A DNA stretch of 49,249 bases, the filler included, from Stramenopiles sp. TOSAG23-3 (Eukaryota), in assembly GCA_900128585.1 (NCBI GenBank). It is 4 parts of 4 records of this genome, joined end to end, with 100 filler letters (N's around TTAATTAATTAA, not from the genome) between each part and the next. Parts side by side here need not be neighbours in the genome. Positions count along the whole stretch, not along the records: positions 22,600 to 45,071 come from LT642335.1; 3 more parts are not named here. One strand, given 5' to 3'. Shown here piece by piece: positions 22,500 to 47,261 of the stretch. The notes beneath the pieces were generated by a model. It searched no databases. It saw only the letters and a list, made by a program, of their open reading frames with translations, and was not told the origin of the DNA. The position numbers and the translations under genes are program-made. How positions within the stretch are numbered: the first letter of the stretch is position 1; each line of letters begins with the position of its first letter.

Positions 22500-22600
22500 N
22501 NNNNNNNNNNNNNNNNNNNNNNNNNNNNNNNNNNNNNNNNNNNTTAATTAATTAANNNNNNNNNNNNNNNNNNNNNNNNNNNNNNNNNNNNNNNNNNNNT
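22500..22600. other. Artificial contig linker (N run, TTAATTAATTAA six-frame stop, N run)
   Basis: The same construct appears at 22544-22555, 45116-45127 and 47206-47217, each within a ~100-nt N block; genes are cut off at these points. Confidence 0.92.
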
Positions 22601-24970: not shown

Positions 24971-25046
24971 AAAAAAATACACCCCTTTTACGATAATTGG
25001 ATTTCTATAAGAAAACACTAAAATCCGCCGGGGGGTGGGTTTTTTT
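24971..25046. repeat. PLV intergenic imperfect palindrome, copy 1 of 8
   Basis: A7-TACACCCCTTTTACG...CCGCCGGGGGGTGGG-T7; close reverse complement of copy 5. Confidence 0.92.
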
Positions 25047-26562: not shown

Positions 26563-26640
26563 AAAAAAAACCCACCCCTTTTACGAAAATGTGTTTTTTA
26601 TAAGGAATACCCAAAATCGTAAAAGGGGTGGGTTTTTTTT
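26563..26640. repeat. PLV intergenic imperfect palindrome, copy 2
   Basis: A8CCCACCCCTTTTACGA-AAATGTGTTTTTTATAAGGAATACCCAAAA-TCGTAAAAGGGGTGGGT8. Confidence 0.95.
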
Positions 26641-26852: not shown

Positions 26853-29800
26853 ATGAATGCTCCTTCGTGTTCCAGCGTATATTCCGCCTCCATGGCCAAA
26901 TCTAATACTAAACCCAAAAAGGGTAAGCAACCTAAAAAGGGTTCAGCAACCCAAAAGGGGTTGGGCAAAAAAAAACTGTCCGCCGCCCAAATTAAAGCTA
27001 ATATTATTAAATCCAGTTATAGTATGATTGATATTAATAAAGTAAAAAGAGTAACACCATTAAAAAAAGGGATGTTGTTCTTTTTTAAGAAACACAAACC
27101 CGGATGTCCAAAAGGTAAGCGATGTAAGTGTTATAAGCCTTTTGAGTTCTTACACAAAAATTTACAAGATGATGAAATTCTATTAAAAATTGTAGAGCCT
27201 ACTCATAGAGGCAAAGACAATAAAGGAGAAGCTCATATGTTTGGTAAGGCGAAAAGGGATGATGTAATTCAAAAAATAAAAACCAAGCAAATGTATTTAC
27301 AAGAATGTTTAAATGAAAACAGACCATTTCGCTTATTGCTTGATATTGATGGGTATAACCAAAATTGCCTTCAAAATACCGTAACGCTATTACAAGACCT
27401 ATTTGGTAAAAATGTTAAAATGGCTATAAGCGGTAGTATAGCAATGAAGAAAAAGAAAGACGATAGTGAAGCAAGAAAGTTTTACTCGTATCATATTATT
27501 CTACCCGAAATCATTTTTGATAATTTGGAACATTTTAGCGATTCAGGAATGGAACAGTGGCTTGCTAAAATTGTTGATAGTGATGAAAACAGTGAAACCT
27601 ACAATGGGATTGATGTAGGCATTTATAATAAAAATAGGGCTTTTAAGATGCCAAACCAAAAAAAGCCTTATAATGATGATAGTAGAATACAAAAGGTTTT
27701 ACAAGACAAGAACATGGAACACCATATTTATAGTATTCTTCCTAATACAGAATATTCACCACTATCCGAAATTGTAATTGAGAAGCTAAATGAAATAAAA
27801 AAAGAAGCCGGGCTTAAAAAGATAAAATCGGTTAGTGGGCGAATATCAGGGGGAAAAAGAATAAAACGAGCAAAAGGCTCTAAGCGGTTTATTGATAATT
27901 ATGCTCATATCAAGAAAATAGAAGGGCAAGAAGCACCGCTTATTGATTTGGCAAATACCTACAATGCTGATTTGCTTATGAATATCCCAAATCTGAAAAG
28001 CAACCCATTAGGGCATAATGGACATTGGTTAGTGCTGCTGTGGGCATACCACAATAAAAATATTTCGTGGGAACAATACCAATTATGGGAAGCCACGTAT
28101 GATGGTGCTGAAAAGCAATATTTTGAAAAAGATGATTGGGACGCTTGTGCGGACTGTAATTGTCATTTGAAGAACAAACACATGCGTCTGTTAATTGAAC
28201 GGTTTTGGGGAAAAATACCAACACCGGCATTTCGCAATATGAAAAAAGAATTTCTTGACGTGGATACAAAAGGAGCTCTTGTAATCAAAAGAAAATGGAT
28301 GAGCAGCGAGGACATAGACGATAAAAAAGCTCAACTTTACTGTGTTGGCATGGGCGGTGGTAAAACGTATGTAACCATAGAATACTTGATTAAGAGGATA
28401 AACGAGAATCCTGACCTAAAAGTGCTTTGGATTACAAATCGGGTAAGTATGGCTACAAACTTAGAACCACGATTAAACGATAAGAAAGAAGGAAACGATA
28501 AAAATTTAAAATTAATAGAAAATAAAAAAATGAAGGAATTTGAGGCCTTGAACAAACAAGTGGAAAAATTACAAAAAAGCCTCGTTGATATAAAACATAG
28601 CAAAGCCAATTATAATCAAAAAGTTCTATTTGAACATTTGAGCGTTAATACACGAATAGAGCGGATTGAACAAAAAATCATAAAGAAACAAGAAGAAGCC
28701 GAAGAATTAAAGAGTTCGTTTCTTGTTCGTGATTTAGATTTTCAGCATTATAAACGATGTAAAGGAAAAGAGATTCGCGACGCAAACCGGGTTATATGCG
28801 AGCTGGAAAGCTTACACAGAGTAGAACACATAAAATACAATATTGTCGTTGTTGATGAACTGGAGAGTGTGTTTAACAGTTTTAGTTCAGACCAGTGCCA
28901 TAACAACATTGGCGATAATTATAAACACAACTACTTTACCTTCCAAAATTTAATTAAGAACTGTGATAAGTTTTTTGGTATGGACGCATATTTAAACAAA
29001 CGAAGCATTAACTACTTGAAAATGATTGATGAAGACATGAAGATAAATCTTGTTATTCGCGACCCTGAATTCAATGATAAGAAACAGGTTATTTTGTATA
29101 ATCAGTGGGAATGGGTTGAAAAGGCCATTGAACGAGTAAAGGCTGGTGAGAACATTTATATGTTTTATCCATACAAAAAAGAAAAAGGGTCAATGTTGAA
29201 GAAAAGTATGGAAGGGTTGGCAAAGACAATTGCGGTTGGGGCAAATATTCCAGAAGAACTTGTAAGATTTTACCATGGAGAAATAGGCGATGCGGACTTA
29301 AAAAAGCTTGACGATGTTAATACGGAATGGAGGAAGTATAGAGTGGTTATTACTAACACAAAGATTACTGTAGGTGTTAATTTCTCAGTTAAAGATTACT
29401 TTGATTCATGCTTTTTGTGTTACGCAGATTGGGTAAGCCCCAGGGACGTAATTCAAAGTAGTTGTCGTGTTAGGTATTTCAATACCGATAAAATTTATAC
29501 CACAAAATTACCAAATATTTTCGCGGCAGAGGCATGTAAGAAAAGAGCAAAAAAGGATGAAGGAGAGGATTTGGATTGTGATGATGAATATGATATGGAA
29601 TTGAACAATGAGTTAAAAACACCACACTTGCCTGATGAACCACGATTTCTTATGGGCGATACATATTTGGAAAAGCAAGACAAAAAGCCTTTTAGATACA
29701 TGATTCAATTTTTAACCGATGAATACTTCGCAAGAGGCCTACCCCTTCTTCTTCATTATTTTAAAGTATCCGGTTACACCATCTCTTACACCAAAAACTA

Positions 29801-30732: not shown

Positions 30733-30810
30733 AAAAAAAAACCCACCCCCTTTACGAAAATGTGTTTTTTATAAGGAATACCTATAATCGTAAAAGGGGT
30801 GGGTTTTTTT
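30733..30810. repeat. PLV intergenic imperfect palindrome, copy 3
   Basis: Near-identical to copy 2; lies between the convergent primase-helicase and ATPase genes. Confidence 0.95.
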
Positions 30811-30938: not shown

Positions 30939-31667
30939 TCATTTAGCTTTATCGTCCGCTGAACCGAATTCCACTTCGTTGAAATTTCGTCTAAATTGTA
31001 GCTGTGGAATCTTTGTTTTCGTATCTATAAAAAAGAAGGAATACTTGTCGGAGGTGGCCTTTTTAAACCGTCTTACAAATTCCTCTTTGGAAAGCGAGTA
31101 ACCCACTTCGCCATAAAGTATGCTGACTTCGCGACGATTGGGAATTTTAAAGAAACAAAAATAATGGGTATTGATGCGAATTCCCCTTGGTATTTTAGTA
31201 TAGGCTTGACTAAGGAAAATACACGAACAATTGGAATGGCGTCCGCGTATGTAATAATTGGTTATGGGTGTAAAATCCTTTTCTAATACAAAATCATCAA
31301 AGACTACCAAATTTTGGATAGAACTGTCTAAATCATCTACCGGAACAATATCTTCAATTGTAGCCCCCGTATGTAAAAGCTGTTGTTCGGTCTTCTCCTC
31401 CACCTTATCAAAGAAATCCTTTAGCATAACCATTTTGGGTTGATGAAGATGTTTGCTGTAAAACCACAATTTATCAAATGAGGCGAACTTAAAAATTATG
31501 TTCATAACAAGATTCGTCTTCCCCGTATTTGTTCCACCATTTATAATCATGTTGTAGGGGTGAATGGGTAAGATTTTAGATTTGTTTCTATACCGGTGGT
31601 TGCCCTTCAATGACTTTAATTTGTCAATATTTATAATATCCAATTTCATTCTATTTGATATACTCAA
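30939..31667 (-). CDS. A32-like (FtsK-HerA) genome packaging ATPase
   Basis: Walker A GGTNTGKT, Walker B LVVFDD, RGRH.N.S.IFLSQ, IPR.IR.N. Confidence 0.95.
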   Translation of the reverse strand: MSISNRMKLDIINIDKLKSLKGNHRYRNKSKILPIHPYNMIINGGTNTGKTNLVMNIIFKFASFDKLWFYSKHLHQPKMVMLKDFFDKVEEKTEQQLLHTGATIEDIVPVDDLDSSIQNLVVFDDFVLEKDFTPITNYYIRGRHSNCSCIFLSQAYTKIPRGIRINTHYFCFFKIPNRREVSILYGEVGYSLSKEEFVRRFKKATSDKYSFFFIDTKTKIPQLQFRRNFNEVEFGSADDKAK

Positions 31668-33125: not shown

Positions 33126-33127
33126 AC

Positions 33128-33203
33128 AAAAAAACCCACCCCCATTACGAAAATGTGTTTTTTATAAGGAATACCCATAATCGTAAAAGGGGTGTATTTT
33201 TTT
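33128..33203. repeat. PLV intergenic imperfect palindrome, copy 4
   Basis: Starts 2 nt after the stop at 33125; same core as copies 2 and 3. Confidence 0.95.
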
Positions 33204-35719: not shown

Positions 35720-35797
35720 AAAAAAAACCCCCCCCCCTGGCGGATTTTAGTGTTTTCTTAAAGAATTCCAATTATCGTAAAAGGGGTGGGTTTTTTT
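35720..35797. repeat. PLV intergenic imperfect palindrome, copy 5
   Basis: A8-C10-TGGCGGATTTTAGTGTTTTCTTAAAGAATTCCAATTATCGTAAAAGGGGTGGG-T7. Confidence 0.92.
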
Positions 35798-36076: not shown

Positions 36077-37056
36077 ATGGCAAGTTTGGCGACCGAACCC
36101 GAATTGTTCCAAACATGGAAAGACAAGTATGAAGCTGCTGAAAAGAAGAACCGAGAACTTATAGCTGAAACACGACGATTAAGAGCAGACAACCGACGAT
36201 TAAGAGATGATATAATAGACCTCACGGATGGACGCTTATGGATTAACATTCCAACTGTTGGCGGATACGGCGAAAACCTTGCGGAATTGTTGGAAGACGA
36301 TTACGCCGATGACGCACCCGTTCTTGCTTATGCTCGTGCTGCTCTTACTCGTGCGATGGAAAACGGTGTCATGGAAGAGATTCTTGATGTAGATGGTGTT
36401 CTGAATGACCTTGATGAGCGTATATTACCGGAAATTCGCGAAGCATTATACAACGATAATTATTTTCCCATAACTGATGATGACCCAACGCAAGCACAGA
36501 GGTTAGGCCAACCAAACGCACCACCACTCACACGAACGTTGTCGGTGGAAGAACAAAAAGAAGAATTACAAAATTTGGACATGACAGATATGGAACGCGA
36601 AAGCTCAATTGGAAAAGACTGTCCGATTTGTTTATGCGCGGTTCATTCTAAAGACGAACGGAATGCGGCAATGCCGTGTTGCGGCAACGTAGTTCATCAA
36701 GATTGTATAAATGTAAAAGAAGGGACGCAATGTCCGTTTTGTAGGACAACCGATATTGGAAGTATGGCTTTGAACTCTCAAGAAATAGAAGAGCGATNNN
36801 NNNNNNNNNNNNNNNTGGAAATGCCCAAACGACTTCGCAACCCGAAACGACTTTGCTTCCAAACCCGAATTTCCGAACGCGAACACTGTGCCCATATTGT
36901 CATAGATTTCCCGAAGACGAATGCCGTTGTGGGACACAATGCGATGCTTGTGGAGTAGAAGTCGTATTAGTCCAAACAACCTTCACACATCATTGGGAAT
37001 TCCCGTGTGGTGCGACATGGGAAAGCACAGAAACTTGTCGCAATACACATAATTAA
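36077..37056 (+). CDS. Coiled-coil plus RING finger protein (putative E3 ligase) with a further Cys-rich C-terminus; spans an N gap
   Basis: CPIC...CCGNVVHQDC...CPFC. After the gap, the frame ending at 37056 (CPYC..CRC..CDAC) is the most plausible continuation. Confidence 0.7.
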
Positions 37057-37414: not shown

Positions 37415-39163
37415 ATGCCGGGTAATAAATCCAAAGAGCAAAACGACGAGGGCTGGAGAAAATGGTATAGCCTTCCAGAGAACAAAAACAAATATTTACG
37501 CAAGAAATTATTAAATAGGATAAACAAAGGAGAAATAGTAAAATTAACTACCCTAAGAAAATACGGGTTACTACAACATTACAAGAAAGAAACAACAAGA
37601 GCAAATAAGCGTAAATTAAAGGAAGAACTTAGTATTGAGCCTTTGTATTATGCTAAGCCAGAGCCCTTAGTGATTGATGGGGTAGAAGAGCTACAGAGCA
37701 TAGGTATGAAACCCAAAAAGCCTGCTGTATCCCTGGATTTATCAAAAACACCAGATACGGATGATGAAGCCGATTTAGCATTTAGTATGCCGGAAGTAGA
37801 TGATGAATCCGATTTTGATGTTTGGAAGGAAATTGACCAGCAACCACAAAACATAATAATACAAGGTAAAAAAGCACCACCAAAAACAAACCAACAATTA
37901 TTAGAAAATACGGCATTGCCTACAAACAAGCGTAAGGCAACAAAAATATTACGGAAAAAAGTCTTGGAATCATCAAAAACATATAAAGTAAAGAAAGGTG
38001 AAAAATTTACGTTTAAAGATGCTTTTGCTTTATTGAACAATCCTAATTTACTGTCGCTGAATCAAATGAAGGAATACAAGCCGGCCAGTATTGCCGCAAT
38101 GAAATCAAGACTACGAACCCTTATGCGGTTGTATAAGGAAGACAAAAAGATATTATGCGATAAAGGGTTAGATGCGGATATTCGGGCTTGTTTGGGAAAT
38201 GCGAAGACAATGTTCAATATATTAAAGAAAGGCAAACATGCTAATGGGAAGACGGTCGGGTATAAGGGCTGGAAAGAGTTTCTTGGTCTTCCCGTAGCAT
38301 TGGCAAATGCGTCGCCGAAGTTTGCTGCTATACTTGGGGCACGGGCACTAAAAGATTACCAAACACTTATGATGACTGGTATAGCCGAATCAGAAGATAA
38401 GCAAGATGATACGGTTCAAACCGAAGTTGTCCTGAATTGGAATATATTCAAAGATACATTGAAGAAAGAGGCCAAGAAATTCAATAAATTGAAAAAAGAT
38501 GTTTTACAAAAGGACAAGACACTTACGGTTGTAGAGAAGCGATTTATAATAGATTTTTTGATATTGGCGATTCCGGTGTTGGGCATACCACGAAGAGATG
38601 ACCATGGCAATCTGTTAATTGTTGATAGTAGCAAAGATATTAAAAATAAAAAGACACAAAATTATTATTTAAGAAAGAATAAGTCTATATGGTTGTATAG
38701 TTTTAAAACCGATGACAAATACGACCCACCCCAAAAATTCATTTTGAAGCGAATGGGTGTTGGAAAGCAGAATTTCACAGCAGAACAGAAAAGGGACGCG
38801 ACAAGATTGGGCGGGTTTATTGAAGATAGTTTGAAAATGTGGAAAAGAAAATATGTAATAACAAGAGAGAATGGTAGGAGATATGCGGGTGGAAAATTAA
38901 GTGAGCGATTACAGCTTGCTATGAGAAAATTTGGTTTGGAAGCAAAAAACCCTTTGTTAGATAAAAATGGTAAGCCCAAGCCAATCGGCTTCAACACATT
39001 TAGACATAGTTATGCGACGTATATACGAGAAACCGATGAAAAAGGTAAAACAAGATTAAATAAAAGACAATTGAAAAATACAGCAAAACAGATGTTACAT
39101 AGTGATAAGATGAATGAAAAATATTTAAGACAATTGGTTCGTGATTTTAATTTAGAAGTATGA
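37415..39163 (+). CDS. Tyrosine recombinase (PLV integrase)
   Basis: Catalytic residues in order: PRR.D (R), FKT (K), N..RHSYAT (R), MLHS (H) and Y in NEKY. Confidence 0.85.
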   Translation: MPGNKSKEQNDEGWRKWYSLPENKNKYLRKKLLNRINKGEIVKLTTLRKYGLLQHYKKETTRANKRKLKEELSIEPLYYAKPEPLVIDGVEELQSIGMKPKKPAVSLDLSKTPDTDDEADLAFSMPEVDDESDFDVWKEIDQQPQNIIIQGKKAPPKTNQQLLENTALPTNKRKATKILRKKVLESSKTYKVKKGEKFTFKDAFALLNNPNLLSLNQMKEYKPASIAAMKSRLRTLMRLYKEDKKILCDKGLDADIRACLGNAKTMFNILKKGKHANGKTVGYKGWKEFLGLPVALANASPKFAAILGARALKDYQTLMMTGIAESEDKQDDTVQTEVVLNWNIFKDTLKKEAKKFNKLKKDVLQKDKTLTVVEKRFIIDFLILAIPVLGIPRRDDHGNLLIVDSSKDIKNKKTQNYYLRKNKSIWLYSFKTDDKYDPPQKFILKRMGVGKQNFTAEQKRDATRLGGFIEDSLKMWKRKYVITRENGRRYAGGKLSERLQLAMRKFGLEAKNPLLDKNGKPKPIGFNTFRHSYATYIRETDEKGKTRLNKRQLKNTAKQMLHSDKMNEKYLRQLVRDFNLEV

Positions 39164-39210
39164 TACTGTTTTTAATACACATTATTTTAATGTTCTTATA
39201 TATTAAAAGA

Positions 39211-39960
39211 ATGGTTTTATTGAAATTGGACAGCAGTAAGGTAAGTCAAGAAGGAGAGGATTTCACGATTAATTTTGATAATCTTGAATTAAACAATAAA
39301 TACGATTACGAGGTCGCTTTGGTAAGAAGTAGTATTTGGTATTCGTATCATAATATTAGCACTGATTTTGGAAATAATGAATTGAAGTATTACAATGGTA
39401 GTGTATGGAAAACCGTAACATTTGATAATGGTATTTATAGTGTTTCGGACATTGATACATTTTTAAAAAATGCCATGAAGGCAAATGGGGATAGTGGAAC
39501 ATCATCAGGGGTAGATGTCTTTTACATCACAATCAGTCCCAACTACACAACCTTAAAATGCGATGTGACCATAAGCAACAACTTCCAGCTTGATTTTACT
39601 ACAAGCACCCTAAGAGAGCTTTTAGGCTTCACAAGCATAATTGCGACTGTAAGCCAAAGTGGTGCGAATCCGGCCGATATTACACGAGGTATTAATTCGC
39701 TTGTAATAGCCTGTGATATTGTAGATGGTAGTTACGACAATGGTGCTTCCTCTTCTATCTTGTATTCATTTGTCCCTAATGTAAGCCCCGGGTCATTAAT
39801 TAACACCGAACCGGTTCAGCGAGTATATTTGCCTATCAATACTAACAATTATATACACCATATACGTATGACTCTTTTAGACAATAAGGGTAGGTTAGTA
39901 AAATTAAATGGAGAACACTCCTTTTACCTATTAGACCTGAAACGAGTGCCTAAAGAATAA
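39211..39960 (+). CDS. Minor capsid (penton) protein
   Basis: YEVAL...IWYS.HNI, G.YS..DI, LLGF, L.I.CDIV..SY, Y.P...I..I...L.D..G..V.LNG: Polinton/PLV penton pattern. ATG is at 39211. Confidence 0.88.
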   Translation: MVLLKLDSSKVSQEGEDFTINFDNLELNNKYDYEVALVRSSIWYSYHNISTDFGNNELKYYNGSVWKTVTFDNGIYSVSDIDTFLKNAMKANGDSGTSSGVDVFYITISPNYTTLKCDVTISNNFQLDFTTSTLRELLGFTSIIATVSQSGANPADITRGINSLVIACDIVDGSYDNGASSSILYSFVPNVSPGSLINTEPVQRVYLPINTNNYIHHIRMTLLDNKGRLVKLNGEHSFYLLDLKRVPKE

Positions 39961-39979
39961 ATATCTACCTATAATATAA

Positions 39980-40513
39980 ATGGTAAAAGTATATAATCAC
40001 GTAGGTAGAGCCTATATAAAAGGGTATGGGCATTGTCCTGTTGTTCATCATGGTAATGGTATGGAAGAGGTGGCGTATCAATCCGGGAAGACTTTAGCTA
40101 AAACAGCTATTCCTATGATAAAAAAAGCGTGGGGTAGTTTAACACCTGAGGCAAGAGGAGCGATAATTGGTTATGCTGGCGATGCTGGTGTTCGGGGCGC
40201 AAAAGCGTTAGGGCGAACTATTAATCAAGGTGTATCCAGTTTAGGTTCAGCAGCCCAAGACAAATTAGAAGGCCTATTGGGGAAATCGGAGAATACAAGT
40301 AGGATTAGTAAATCGGCAGAGAATATGATGAAAAAAATGATAAAAAGTAAAAAAAAAGAAGTAAAGCAAAAAGCGAAAAAAATGCCTATCAGCAGAAAAC
40401 TACCAAAAAGCGTAATGAAGAATTTATCCACGTCGGAGCAAAAGCAGATTGATGATGCTTCTGTCAATATGCTGTCTTCACTACTAAGTGGGCAAGGTTT
40501 AAGATTAATGTAA
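39980..40513 (+). CDS. Basic putative core/membrane-lytic virion protein with adenain-type cleavage sites
   Basis: IKGY/G, HHGN/G and C-terminal LSGQ/GLRLM; lies between the penton and MCP genes. Confidence 0.65.
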   Translation: MVKVYNHVGRAYIKGYGHCPVVHHGNGMEEVAYQSGKTLAKTAIPMIKKAWGSLTPEARGAIIGYAGDAGVRGAKALGRTINQGVSSLGSAAQDKLEGLLGKSENTSRISKSAENMMKKMIKSKKKEVKQKAKKMPISRKLPKSVMKNLSTSEQKQIDDASVNMLSSLLSGQGLRLM

Positions 40514-40530
40514 GTATAGTGGGTATGACG

Positions 40531-40607
40531 AAAAAAAACCCACCCCCTTTACGATTTTAGGGATTTCTTATAAAAAACACATTTTCGTAAAAGGGGTGGG
40601 TTTTTTT
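40531..40607. repeat. PLV intergenic imperfect palindrome, copy 6 (inverted relative to copies 2-4)
   Basis: Its core is the reverse complement of the copy 2-4 core. Confidence 0.95.
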
Positions 40608-40657
40608 GAACCTCAAAATGTATAATAGAAAAATAAAATATGTTTTCCTATTATATA

Positions 40658-41962
40658 ATGTCATTAGTTAATCCGCAACTACAAGTGTTTAGCGAACCTT
40701 TAGAAGATGCGAGTATAGAAGGTTACGATTATCACAACTATGCTCCTGATACAGAAGTTCCCGGTGTGGGTCAAAGTCGTTGGGACATCCAAATTAAAGA
40801 TTTAGATTCGTATATTAATTTTTCACGGTCTTACCTCCAGGTGTCTGTTCGTTTGGTTACTGCCGCTGGAGCTGCTATAGCTGCCGCAAAAGATTGTGCT
40901 TTAGTAAATAATGGGCTCTCCCTTTTTGAAACCGCACGAATTTTAGTAGATGGCCAAATTATTGAAGAAACAAATTTTTGTCCTCAAGCTACTACGATGA
41001 GATTTTTGGCCGAATCATCAGACGACTACTATCGCACTTCTGGTTCTGCTATGGGATTTTATAAAGATACAGGAACGGGTTCAAATGTTCCAGCAAACAA
41101 CGCCGGCTTTACAACTCGTAGAGCCTTAGCCGATAATGGAAAGAATATGACTATGTATATTCCCATCAAACACCTTTTTGGTTACGCGTGTGTAGATAAA
41201 ATCACTAAGGGGTTACGCCATACTTTAAGCCTTACCAAGTCAAGCAGAGCAAACATGATACATCAAAATACTGGAAACGCTGGTGCTCAGTTGGCAACTG
41301 GAACTGATGTGTATTTTAGTAAAATCCGACTTTGGACACCTGTTTGTCGTCCCAGCCTTAGTGTAATTTCTTCAATTGAGGGAAAGCTCAATCAAGGGTT
41401 TAGTCAAAAAATGAACTGGCTTGCTAATAACTCTTATCGGTCTGGAGAATTTGCCGCAGCAAATACTACAATTAATTGGCGTATCGCAAATGCCGCCGTG
41501 AATCCGAAAACGGTTTTTGTAGCATTTCAGCTTGTAAGCAAAGATAATGATGAAGAACAATCTCCAGTTGTGTTCAGTCACGAAAATGTTACAGAAATAG
41601 AATTGAGGGTAAATTCACAGGCCGTTCCAAAAGAGCGATTACAGGTTGATTATGCTGCTGCTACGGTTGATGCTGCTCGCGCTTACCACATGTTCAATCA
41701 GCACGCGAACCAATTTAACGATAATCAGAACGGTTCTTTAGTAAATTACACAGATTACGCCAGCGGTTTATATGCTATTTACCGATTTGACCTTGGTCAC
41801 ATTGACCCTGCTGTTTTTGCCGTTTCTGGAAGTGCGGATTTAGAGCTTCGTGTAAGAAAAACTGCTTCAGCCGGAAATGTTAGAATTTTTGCGAATGTGC
41901 TTGGGGAACGTGAAGCGGTTATTTCGGGGGCAAGTAATAGCTTAAGATTAGAAATGTTGTAA
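40658..41962 (+). CDS. Major capsid protein (double jelly-roll)
   Basis: Size ~434 aa; SYLQV, LVNNG.SLF....I..DGQ.IE, IPIKHLFG, P..VFVAFQ, F.H.NV..I.L.VN...P, IY.FDL: Polinton/PLV MCP pattern. TATAATG start. Confidence 0.92.
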   Translation: MSLVNPQLQVFSEPLEDASIEGYDYHNYAPDTEVPGVGQSRWDIQIKDLDSYINFSRSYLQVSVRLVTAAGAAIAAAKDCALVNNGLSLFETARILVDGQIIEETNFCPQATTMRFLAESSDDYYRTSGSAMGFYKDTGTGSNVPANNAGFTTRRALADNGKNMTMYIPIKHLFGYACVDKITKGLRHTLSLTKSSRANMIHQNTGNAGAQLATGTDVYFSKIRLWTPVCRPSLSVISSIEGKLNQGFSQKMNWLANNSYRSGEFAAANTTINWRIANAAVNPKTVFVAFQLVSKDNDEEQSPVVFSHENVTEIELRVNSQAVPKERLQVDYAAATVDAARAYHMFNQHANQFNDNQNGSLVNYTDYASGLYAIYRFDLGHIDPAVFAVSGSADLELRVRKTASAGNVRIFANVLGEREAVISGASNSLRLEML

Positions 41963-42000
41963 CTTATAATATTTAATTTTTTTATATTTGTAAATATTAT

Positions 42001-42216
42001 ATGGCGAAAAAGAAATGTAAATGTAAAAAGCGGGGACGGCCTCGCAAACCCGGTCGTCCAAAAGGGTCTAAGAACAAGAAAAAGACCAAAAGAAAGCAGC
42101 GAGGAGGCGCTGTCCCTGCTCTTGCTCTTCTGGCGGCACAAACCCTCGGGCCAGTTGCTCTCAAATTATTTTTAAAAAAATTAGAGGGGAATGGTCTTAG
42201 ATTACTTGGAAAATGA
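42001..42216 (+). CDS. Small pX/mu-like core protein with AT-hooks
   Basis: KRGRPRK and GRPKGSKNK AT-hooks, QRGG followed by a hydrophobic helix, then LEGN/GL; ends in TGA-CTA. Confidence 0.8.
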   Translation: MAKKKCKCKKRGRPRKPGRPKGSKNKKKTKRKQRGGAVPALALLAAQTLGPVALKLFLKKLEGNGLRLLGK

Positions 42217-42678
42217 CTACCAGACGATAGTGCTGGTTTAAGCAATTTTGAGTTAGACAACCTATTAAAGAATACCAAAAGTTATTTAGGGACTTTCAGT
42301 CATGATGCTATTCCTACCTTTTCGGCGAATAAAAGGCAAAGTGCGATAATTAATTATAATAATAGCGACCAATTGGGAAGTCATTGGGTTGCGATTTATA
42401 ATGACCCAAGCAAAAAATACATTGAGTTCTTTGATTCCTTTGGGGTAGTGCCTTCGGCTACAATTCAAAAAAAAATGCGAGCAACCAAAAAACGCATACT
42501 ATACAATACAAGCTCTATTCAACCAAAAGACTCTAATAAGTGCGGGCTCTACACTTATTTTTATATTATTATGCGAGAACGTGGTATGCCACCCTACGAT
42601 ATAATTTACCGCTTCACACCTAATAATAGTGAAGAGAACGATAGAATATTAATTGATTTGTTGGAAGACACAATATAA
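42217..42678 (+). CDS. Adenain-like (C5/Ulp1-fold) maturation cysteine protease; no ATG, in frame with the upstream core gene
   Basis: LSNFEL..., IIN....GSHWVA, FFDSFG, IQ....KCG (His-Asp-Gln-Cys). The frame is open from 42217, with no Met before the catalytic His. Confidence 0.9.
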   Translation, partial: LPDDSAGLSNFELDNLLKNTKSYLGTFSHDAIPTFSANKRQSAIINYNNSDQLGSHWVAIYNDPSKKYIEFFDSFGVVPSATIQKKMRATKKRILYNTSSIQPKDSNKCGLYTYFYIIMRERGMPPYDIIYRFTPNNSEENDRILIDLLEDTI

Positions 42679-42742
42679 TAGACAATACTTTATTATATTA
42701 TGAAAACCTATACTTAGAAATATATCATTTGATTATACTATA

Positions 42743-42991
42743 ATGAGTGTAAAACAGTATCACGCAGAATACATTGATGAATACCAATTTGGATACAAAT
42801 GTGATAGTTGTCCGAAGTATCATAGACATGGAAATTGTTTGGATTACAAAACGAACAGGGTAGAGCATAGAAGTTGTCATTGTGAAAAAATGGCGGGAGA
42901 TGTAGAAATTATAATTGATGAAAATACTATACGACGACTTAGTAGGCGAGAAAGACGGGAATACAATAAATATTTACAAAATCAAAGTTGA
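42743..42991 (+). CDS. Small Cys/His zinc-binding protein
   Basis: CDSC..YH.HG...EHRSCHC; TATAATG start. Confidence 0.7.
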   Translation: MSVKQYHAEYIDEYQFGYKCDSCPKYHRHGNCLDYKTNRVEHRSCHCEKMAGDVEIIIDENTIRRLSRRERREYNKYLQNQS

Positions 42992-43083: not shown

Positions 43084-43160
43084 AAAAAAAACCCACCCCC
43101 CGGCGGATTTTTGATTTTTCTTAAGGGAAACCCATTTTCGTAAAAGGGGTGGGTTTTTTT
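43084..43160. repeat. PLV intergenic imperfect palindrome, copy 7
   Basis: Lies between convergent genes and overlaps the stop of the ORF ending at 43159. Confidence 0.92.
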
Positions 43161-44135: not shown

Positions 44136-44617
44136 NNNNNNNNNNNNNNNNNNNNNNNNNNNNNNNNNNNNNNNNNNNNNNNNNNNNNNNNNNNNNNNNN
44201 NNNNNNNNNNNNNNNNNNNNNNNNNNNNNNNNNNNNNNNNNNNNNNNNNNNNNNNNNNNNNNNNNNNNNNNNNNNNNNNNNNNNNNNNNNNNNGAAAGAA
44301 GTAAAGCAATAGAGAAAGTAAAGGGACGGGGGTATTAATGAATTGAATAAGTGTTGCGTTGTTGCGTTGTTGTTGTGTAAAAATAAAAAGAAGAAAGAAA
44401 ATAAAAAGAAAGATTTTATTTCACAGAAGGAAATAGCATCAAAATTCAAAAAAGAAGGGAAGGGATGTAAATCAGATAATTTTATATTAACATACATACG
44501 GATAGTATTAAGAAAAAGGATGCGGGTAGTGGAAAAGTGGTGCGTGTAGCCGGAGTGAAAAAGTGGATTGGTTGGCGATGGAGGTAGTGGTTGTTGTGTT
44601 TATGTATAATTTATGTT

Positions 44618-44694
44618 AAAAAAAACCCCCCCCTTTTACGATTCTTGTGTTTCTATAAGGAAATGGTGTTTTCGTAAAAGGGGTGTATTTTTTT
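44618..44694. repeat. PLV intergenic imperfect palindrome, copy 8
   Basis: A8-C8-TTTTACGA...TCGTAAAAGGGGTGTA-T7 in the noncoding right end. Confidence 0.92.
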
Positions 44695-45071: not shown

Positions 45072-45402
45072 NNNNNNNNNNNNNNNNNNNNNNNNNNNNN
45101 NNNNNNNNNNNNNNNTTAATTAATTAANNNNNNNNNNNNNNNNNNNNNNNNNNNNNNNNNNNNNNNNNNNNCTTTCTTTCTTTTTTAGATTTCTTTCTTT
45201 CTTTCTTTCTTTCTTTTTTAGATTTCTTTCTTTCTTTCTTTCTTTTTTAGATTACAGAAAAAGAAACACAAAAATTCCCAACAACACAACTAAAAAAAAA
45301 ATATTATTTTTTATTAGGTTTAATAATACAACACAACAATGAAAAGAAGGAGGTATTTATTTCGCACTCCTCTTCTTCTTCTAGTATATATTTTTGTGTT
45401 TT

Positions 45403-47161: not shown

Positions 47162-47261
47162 NNNNNNNNNNNNNNNNNNNNNNNNNNNNNNNNNNNNNNN
47201 NNNNNTTAATTAATTAANNNNNNNNNNNNNNNNNNNNNNNNNNNNNNNNNNNNNNNNNNNN

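Follow-up and report, generated by a model that had tools for sequence, protein, structure and literature searches.

How is a protease made when its reading frame has no start codon and opens directly behind the stop codon of another gene? The question is raised by a 49,249-nt stretch of DNA from Stramenopiles sp. TOSAG23-3 (GenBank assembly GCA_900128585.1), hereafter called the window, which contains a 22.5-kb contig (LT642335.1, positions 22600–45071) that is, judging from its genes, a polinton-like virus (PLV). In this contig an open reading frame (ORF) for a 71-aa core-like protein ends at a TGA (42214–42216, plus strand), and the same frame continues into an adenain-like cysteine protease. 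We put at roughly 65% the probability that the protease of the window is made as a core-protease fusion by readthrough of this UGA, as sequence comparison suggests. Most ribosomes would stop at the UGA and yield the 71-residue core protein, and a minority would decode it, in the context AAA UGA CUA, as a sense codon and yield a 225-residue fusion whose junction peptide would read LLGK-[W/R/C]-LPDDSAGLSNFELDNLLK. Close relatives with the orthologous gene pair appear to reach the same fusion by −1 ribosomal frameshifting, which strengthens the fusion reading.

The junction was re-translated in all particulars given by a preliminary description of the locus. The 71-aa core ORF (42001–42216, plus strand) ends, as described there, in GGA AAA TGA followed by CTA CCA GAC, and the proposed readthrough signal GGA AAA UGA CUA CCA occupies 42208–42222. 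Behind the stop the same frame indeed stays open for 153 codons (42217–42678, plus strand, with the TAA at 42676–42678) and holds no ATG before the catalytic histidine, the first being the M of QKKMRAT, which comes after the histidine of GSHW. No in-frame CTG, GTG, TTG or ACG was found between the TGA and the conserved N-terminus of the protease. Translation of the third frame agreed that the ATG nearest the stop (42213) is out of frame, where it opens a mini-ORF of five codons (ATG ACT ACC AGA CGA TAG, encoding MTTRR; 42213–42230, plus strand). A −1 shift within the core ORF of the window, at U_UUA_AAA or A_AAA_AAA 13–14 codons before its stop, was considered and rejected: the −1 frame closes after a few codons (…KKIRGEWS and a stop), so that such a shift is no route to the protease. 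Two adenines directly 5′ of a stop codon, as found here, play a role in readthrough. Both UGA CUAG and UGA CUA are weak termination contexts in the available excerpt of a preprint (bioRxiv 10.1101/2021.04.18.440353), which agrees with the leaky context that the preliminary description had named.

The downstream frame is, by sequence and structural model, a genuine and complete adenain-like protease, as had been proposed. Pfam Peptidase_C5 (PF00770) gave it a score of 33.3 bits (cutoff 21.3, E 5.1e-8), and a profile of 11 homologs matched both adenain (1avp, E 1e-8) and pS273R of African swine fever virus (ASFV; E 5.9e-9). Position 8 of the profile, which is the L of LSNF, was aligned to residue 4 of 1avp; LSNF marks the start of the conserved protease domain seven codons past the stop, and the whole domain thus lies behind the stop. 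The AF2 model of the protease had a pLDDT of 89.1, and in Foldseek it was closest to adenovirus proteinases (1nln_A, E 5e-9, TMq 0.78), with poxvirus I7L and ASFV pS273R ranking behind them. The residues H56, E70/D73, Q102 and C109, invariant or nearly so in the homolog alignment, are all present in the window, with the catalytic His and Cys codons at 42382–42384 and 42541–42543 on the plus strand. The LSNFELD helix (residues 10–16 of the model) was conserved down to relatives of 30% identity.

The TGA at 42214–42216 is real. It is bridged by sequence from outside the assembly, namely a 645-nt contig from marine metagenome X5 (41949–42594) and a 151-nt contig from viral-fraction metagenome X4 (42160–42303), neither of which lists a difference at these three positions; no joints were reported in the metagenome contigs crossing the stop. 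Neither a sense codon nor a frame-restoring indel, the changes that the preliminary description had set against its own proposal, was seen. That the stop is an assembly error, or is removed in the RNA by a small intron, editing or polymerase slippage, we regard as very improbable. A GT (42194) and an AG (42230) do bracket the stop, and runs of 10–13 A at the junctions of relatives make polymerase slippage plausible there. However, the GT…AG pair, the only one around the stop, spans 37 nt and was rejected as an intron since its excision would break the frame, no A run longer than one base lies between the window stop and LSNF, and four sequences and the two metagenome contigs agree on the DNA. 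No joints appeared in the runs compared either, which is a weak argument because the RNA contigs do not lie over the site.

Decoding of the TGA as an amino acid, through a variant code or as selenocysteine, would likewise account for a frame that is open across it, and some protists reassign TGA. We consider this exceedingly improbable, however, since TGA terminates 6 of the 15 ORFs of the element, the five others like those on the host contigs of the window ending at it with sensible lengths, and no long ORF of the element requires TGA to be read through. No Rfam family, the selenocysteine insertion sequence (SECIS) included, was found in 22600–45071, and the site falls in a poorly conserved linker and not at a catalytic position. 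The other TGA-terminated ORFs of the element and of the host contigs thus indicate that TGA is a normal stop here and that the standard code applies. Among the six TGA stops of the element, only that of the core gene is followed by C, the others being followed by A (four) or T (one).

Relatives were collected by a search of 5.8 billion proteins, which returned 10 homologs of 84–268 aa, and by DNA scans, which returned 80 metagenome loci (the best 80 of 288 tblastn-positive stretches) and 15 IMG/VR loci. In IMG/VR, the single window protease had no relatives, and an alignment used as the query gave only sequences of at most 37% identity. The closest locus, L001 (99% protease identity), has the same bases around the stop (GGA AAA TGA CTA CCA), and L002 and L003 (89% protease identity) are again identical there and have no ATG ahead of LSNF, despite a core protein whose middle part has diverged. 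Between the proteases of the window and L002, we obtained a synonymous divergence (dS) of 0.51 and a ratio of nonsynonymous to synonymous divergence (dN/dS) of 0.16, which indicates that the in-frame TGA arrangement has been kept while the enzyme was under selection.

The same comparison bears on whether the TGA is a nonsense mutation in a formerly single gene, or the protease is decaying or unexpressed in a degenerate copy. In favor of this are natural in-frame extensions of the protease in other sequences (at least 161 codons from an upstream ATG in L082, and the 268-aa protein P0008) and the origin of the window in a draft assembly with gaps. On the other hand, the stop is common to lineages at dS 0.51 with a protease dN/dS of 0.16, the invariant catalytic residues are all intact, the stop is present in the viral-fraction metagenome contig, and no stop-free core-protease fusion was found among the 84–268-aa homologs of the protein search. 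The core end …GLRLL is moreover common to the sister clade described below, where the core ORF ends at the same place, so that a stop at this point is ancestral to the eight-member clade. We therefore hold a nonsense mutation or decay to be highly improbable.

This sister clade, L005–L008, has 60–63% identity to the window protease and a tree support of 97/97, and the upstream ORFs of L001–L008 are orthologous to the core gene according to hmmsearch (E 1e-21 or better). In L005–L008 the protease again lacks an ATG, its frame being −1 relative to the core ORF and open for 28–29 codons upstream. In L007 and L008, GGA AAA AAC lies nine codons upstream of the core stop and reads A_AAA_AAC when split in the core frame; L005 and L006 carry G_GGA_AAG in that frame. 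A hairpin 3′ of the heptamer is conserved in L005–L008 (z −4.6, −3.8 and −3.4, with 0 of 200 shuffles as stable; the values for the clade range from −3.4 to −5.1). To judge from these sequences, the gene junction that holds the TGA in the window is organized in this clade as is typical of −1 frameshift sites.

The survey of protease junctions covered 96 sequences, i.e. the 95 loci from the DNA scans and the window, in 66 of which the conserved N-terminus was located, the other 30 starting late or running off the contig. No ATG was present in 30 of them; the upstream ORF was in the +1 frame, from which the protease is reached by a −1 shift, in 22, in frame in 4 (the window and L001–L003), in the +2 frame in 0, and no usable ORF was found in 4. 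A Met stood at the conserved first position in 22 (12 with the upstream ORF in +1, 5 in frame, 2 in +2, 3 without a usable ORF), and an ATG lay a few codons upstream in 14 (7, 3, 1 and 3, respectively). The frame relation alone was rejected as proof of frameshifting because the ATG-bearing loci show the same +1 bias (19 of the 27 that have an upstream ORF close by, mostly in ATGA or TAATG overlaps).

After duplicates (L001, L003, L083, L085 and L086), misaligned loci (L031, L053, L058 and L079) and loci lacking a 50-codon upstream ORF were dropped, a usable X_XXY_YYZ in the right frame within the open overlap was found in 19 of 20 ATG-less −1 loci versus 3 of 27 ATG-bearing loci. These sites include A_AAA_AAC in L007, L008, L026, L030 and L068, U_UUU_UUA in L035 and L044, and further G_GGA_AAG, A_AAA_AAG and A runs of 9–13 bases (L010, L014, L017, L023 and L081). 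In L068, the cleanest case, A_AAA_AAC fills the four codons over which both frames are open, and a hairpin of z −5.3 starts after a spacer of 7 nt; in the hairpin control, z was below −3 in 1.4% of 279 control windows. The loci with a Met start group in a single clade of 21 in the tree, and the ATG-less lineages are scattered over the remainder. From these patterns, the more distant relatives would make the fusion at slippery heptamers or long A runs. We see an even chance that a broad PLV group makes its protease only by recoding of the preceding core or minor-virion gene, in at least 10 deep lineages; the routes in this broader reading would be UGA readthrough, −1 frameshifting at A_AAA_AAC or U_UUU_UUA with hairpins, and slippage on runs of A10–A13.

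Several further features of these junctions were recorded. Runs of 10–13 A lie at the junction in L010 (2956–2975), L014 (150–175), L023, L081, L028 and L029; on A10–A13 runs the −1 product could arise via polymerase slippage instead of ribosomal frameshifting, and such runs are also prone to assembly error. Stop-free in-frame N-terminal extensions of the protease occur in L082 (2332–3440, at least 161 residues) and P0008 (268 aa, at least 115 residues), and they are not obviously related to the core family. In L012, L013, L015, L016, L020, L021, L024, L026, L035, L037, L044 and L068, the protease is preceded by a family of 100–220 aa with L[ST]xxQ repeats, the motif K[LF]SKTQLxKxGGFLP, a hydrophobic stretch and GKGxYLPG near the end, which on these sequence features may be a longer counterpart of the 71-aa core protein of the window. 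The core hidden Markov model gave only marginal matches to the distant upstream ORFs (L025, E 0.0014; L068, E 0.025; L080, E 0.08).

Separate initiation is the main rival of the readthrough fusion. The protease would then be translated from its own transcript, by internal ribosome entry, from a non-AUG start or by re-initiation, and its in-frame position would be gene packing without function. L004 (69% identity, same clade) provides the clearest case for it, having TGA AAA TAT ATG, i.e. an ATG of its own two codons past the same TGA and a tight stop context; a free-standing protease is thus viable in this group. L002, L003 and L005–L008 have an in-frame Met at D[NEK]ML (DNML in L002 and L003, past the conserved LSNFELDN), and this Met was chosen as the start by gene callers for P0001, P0006 and P0007. 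Many relatives have the protease ATG in an ATGA or TAATG overlap, and tight coupling without fusion is accordingly common in the family. In L015, L019, L020 and L030 a TTG, possibly a weak non-AUG start, stands at the first conserved codon and overlaps the TGA of the upstream ORF, and within the element itself another gene pair, 37415–39163 and 39160–39960, is also ATGA-overlapped without a promoter-like stretch.

Nevertheless, we judge separate initiation to be unlikely for the window. The window and L001 have no ATG before the catalytic His and no CTG, GTG, TTG or ACG upstream of LSNF, and the Met of D[NEK]ML is Leu in both; where this Met is present, starting at it would drop the conserved LSNFELD helix. 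The nearby ATG at 42213 opens only a five-codon ORF, in another frame. More widely, 11 of 24 ATG-less loci, the window included, have no in-frame CTG, GTG, TTG or ACG in the open upstream frame. A start-less enzyme behind a leaky stop, together with the frameshifting signals of the relatives, suggests that the enzyme arises solely as an infrequent C-terminal extension of the core protein. The expectation of the preliminary description that homologs would keep TGA-CTA and lack a protease ATG held for L001 and for L002 and L003, but not for L004.

We next consider the protein to which the protease would be joined. The core ORF has a basic GRP-repeat N-terminus reading MAKKKCKCKKRGRPRKPGRPKGSKNKKK, a GG-hydrophobic stretch and the C-terminus LEGN/GLRLLGK. 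An AT-hook-like stretch, RGRPRKPGRPKG, is encoded at 42031–42066 on the plus strand (core residues 11–22) as read from the translation; the core protein had no Pfam match at E ≤ 0.01, so the AT-hook label derives from the motif only. The sequence L-E-G-N-G (42181–42195, plus strand, core residues 61–65) agrees with the adenain-type cleavage pattern hydrophobic-x-G-x/G, and 7 residues lie between the putative cut and the core stop. The adenain site proposed in the preliminary description therefore fits in pattern and position and is kept in L004, but the hydrophobic P4 residue is lost in L002, L003 and L005–L008, which weakens the claim of cleavage. Matches to [MIL]xGxG or [MIL]xGGx number 7 in the 6077 aa of the element, and two of the seven stand just ahead of a C-terminal GLRL[LM], in the core ORF and in a 177-aa ORF (39980–40513, plus strand) whose C-terminus LLSGQ/GLRLM shares its x-G-x/GLRL tail with the core protein. 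LRL tails were observed in three virion-type proteins: LSGQGLRLM (40499–40513), LEGNGLRLLGK (42181–42213) and SNSLRLEML of the capsid protein (41939–41962). By analogy with adenovirus pVIc, such a common C-terminal tail could be a docking or cofactor peptide for the protease. In the AF2 model of the 225-aa product, with the TGA taken as W, the protease part folds and core residues 1–67 have a pLDDT below 50.

A number of observations weigh against recoding, whether in the window or among its relatives. The TGA-CTA arrangement occurs in only two effectively independent lineages, and L004, the DNML methionine of L002 and L003 and the TTG codons leave room for starts of the protease itself. No RNA structure was found 3′ of the TGA in 42214–42340 (z 0.29), nor was there covariation support 3′ of the TGA in an alignment of five sequences; to our knowledge, the UGA-CUA context is not known to need a 3′ RNA structure. 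The contigs of RNA run X17 lie on either side of the junction (41942–41980 and 42576–42842) and not across it. On docking of the GLRLLGK tail the AF2 fusion model is uninformative, the pLDDT of core residues 1–67 being below 50. Among the relatives, the ATG-bearing loci favor the +1 relation as well, the slippery sites sit in lysine-rich tails, which would contain A runs in any case, and only 4 of the 18 loci tested had a hairpin with z below −3 (L005, L007, L008 and L068), representing two lineages; that of L010 was borderline (z −2.9) and the other 13 loci had no strong structure. In sum, the UGA-CUA readthrough fusion of the preliminary description came through the tests applied to it and gained from the −1 signals of the sister clade, while its cleavage site is weakened by poor conservation and the separate ATG of L004 counts against it.

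The surroundings of the junction were consistent with the PLV context described earlier. The window chains at least four contigs, with runs of N around TTAATTAATTAA linkers at 22500–22599, 45072–45171 and 47162–47261, the first two of which flank the virus contig; the virus contig itself has internal gaps at 36798–36815 and 44136–44293. Eukaryotic genes (WD40, malic enzyme and CEP104) are located on contigs other than the virus contig, and since host and virus genes are on separate contigs, their order in the window is no argument for integration. The virus contig encodes a double jelly roll (DJR) major capsid protein (40640–41962, plus strand; PF21738, E 2.7e-7; C-terminus SNSLRLEML) and, by domain match, an A32-type packaging ATPase (30939–31667, minus strand), which bear out the PLV assignment and, with the maturation protease and an element of the ~20 kb class, are the features by which PLVs are recognized. 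It also encodes a 1288-aa helicase-like protein, a fibre with an S74 chaperone domain and a RING protein. Neither pPolB nor a retroviral-type integrase was found among the scanned ORFs of the element, and no penton protein was identified there.

The capsid, core and protease genes and ORF82 (42743–42991, plus strand) follow one another in a block. Its boundaries are marked by copies of a 76-nt palindromic repeat of the form A7-stem-loop-T7 (AAAAAAACCCACCCCC…stem-loop…GGGGGTGGGTTTTTTT), upstream at 40531–40607 and downstream at 43085–43160. The virus contig has eight intergenic copies in total, mostly 3′ of genes, the others being at 24971–25046, 26564–26640, 30735–30810, 33127–33203, 35722–35797 and 44619–44694, and none of the eight interrupts the series formed by the capsid, core and protease genes and the ORF at 42743–42991. 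The fold of one copy region (40514–40625) had z −4.5. The palindromes look like two-way transcript-end hairpins, much as in the hairpin rule known from giant viruses. A TATA(A/G)TATA-like stretch was observed within 30 bases 5′ of the ATG of the genes at 26853, 31749, 37415, 39980, 42001, 42743 and, on the minus strand, 25677, a sequence pattern that suggests one short promoter per gene and nearly leaderless transcripts. Although most genes of the element have such a stretch, none was found 5′ of the protease or of the gene at 39160. The core/protease boundary thus has neither a promoter-like stretch nor an intergenic hairpin, unlike most other genes of the element. The pair of genes at 37415–39163 (582 aa) and 39160–39960 (266 aa) overlaps in an ATGA at 39160–39163, with no promoter-like stretch in between, and its two products had no Pfam match.

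If the fusion is made as proposed, readthrough would set a low ratio of protease to core protein and would couple the protease to a virion protein that is basic and probably binds DNA. Through DNA binding by its GRP-rich basic part, the fusion would bring the protease into the particle, and the protease would be set free later. We infer readthrough itself from the arrangement of the junction and its conservation; its level, virion incorporation and the later release of the protease are conjecture. The fusion would amount to a Gag-Pro-like strategy of expression and packaging in adenovirus-related eukaryotic double-stranded DNA (dsDNA) viruses, would readily explain how the protease is dosed and packaged in these small viruses, and would be a fusion-based analogue of the arrangement of protease, pVIc and DNA in adenovirus. 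The junctions would also provide short recoding cassettes of natural origin that function in protists and lend themselves to reporter assays.

The proposal has a bearing on annotation as well. The database proteins P0001 and P0004–P0007 start at an internal Met (MLK or MLR) or at TTG, from which it appears that gene callers struggle with this protease and that truncated or mis-started versions are present in public protein sets. Standard gene callers truncate or miss such proteases, which bears on statements that most PLVs lack one (PMC7805220), and recoding across a broad group, if true, would account for the under-calling of proteases in the genomes of PLVs.

In retroviruses and RNA viruses, the coupling of a structural protein with the virion protease by readthrough or −1 frameshifting is textbook knowledge. 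In gammaretroviruses of the murine leukaemia virus type, the in-frame protease behind the nucleic-acid-binding Gag is made by readthrough of a UAG with the aid of a pseudoknot. The arrangement in the window is similar in that a basic protein is followed by an in-frame protease behind a stop, and the fusion would set the stoichiometry and deliver the enzyme. It differs in its DNA genome, its unrelated adenain-like protease of clan CE and its UGA-CUA, and no 3′ structure was found and no polymerase follows. Beta- and deltaretroviruses use gag-pro −1 frameshifting at A_AAA_AAC. The same heptamer is found in the upstream frame of L007, L008, L026, L030 and L068, followed in L007, L008 and L068 by a stable hairpin and an ATG-less protease frame; this likeness concerns the relatives and not the window, the viruses are dsDNA viruses of protists, and the structures appear, by minimum-free-energy folding, to be simple hairpins.

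The UGA CUA context is shared with alphavirus nsP3/nsP4 and with cellular UGA-CUA(G) readthrough genes, whereas the base after CUA is C here and not G, and leakiness is a prediction in our case. Among dsDNA viruses, a −1 frameshift fixes the ratio of short and extended protein in the tail-assembly chaperones G/GT of phages. The −1 loci among the relatives of the window protease would resemble this in the use of programmed −1 frameshifting by a dsDNA virus to balance a short protein against its extended form, but the phage system is bacterial, its proteins are unrelated and its extension is not an enzyme.

The adenovirus proteinase (AVP) has the same fold and catalytic arrangement as the window protease. 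In the available excerpts, adenovirus pVI is cut at IVGL/G to free the C-terminal pVIc (PMC4246237), and pVIc slides the proteinase along DNA (PMC4740752). The element correspondingly has two virion-type proteins in which x-G-x/G is followed by a GLRL[LM] peptide, and by analogy its protease would be tethered to a basic protein. In contrast to the proposed translational fusion, however, AVP has its own gene and start codon, and its cofactor is bound non-covalently or by a disulfide.

Among PLVs, a protease is present only in the Gossevirus group according to the excerpted text of PMC7805220. The cysteine proteases of virophages and of this PLV group belong to the same family as that of the window and likewise come from small protist viruses with DJR capsids. 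As the preliminary description had supposed, no account of a start-less or recoded protease was found for these viruses in the excerpts of the literature available, nor one of recoding for the protease of a polinton, PLV, virophage or adenovirus-like dsDNA virus in the full-text literature, supplementary gene tables lying outside both searches. The retrieved passages of the PLV, polinton and virophage literature mention frameshifts only as errors, decay or search settings. The recoding mechanisms compared here are known; what appears new is that eukaryotic dsDNA viruses would use them to extend a core protein by an adenain-like protease.

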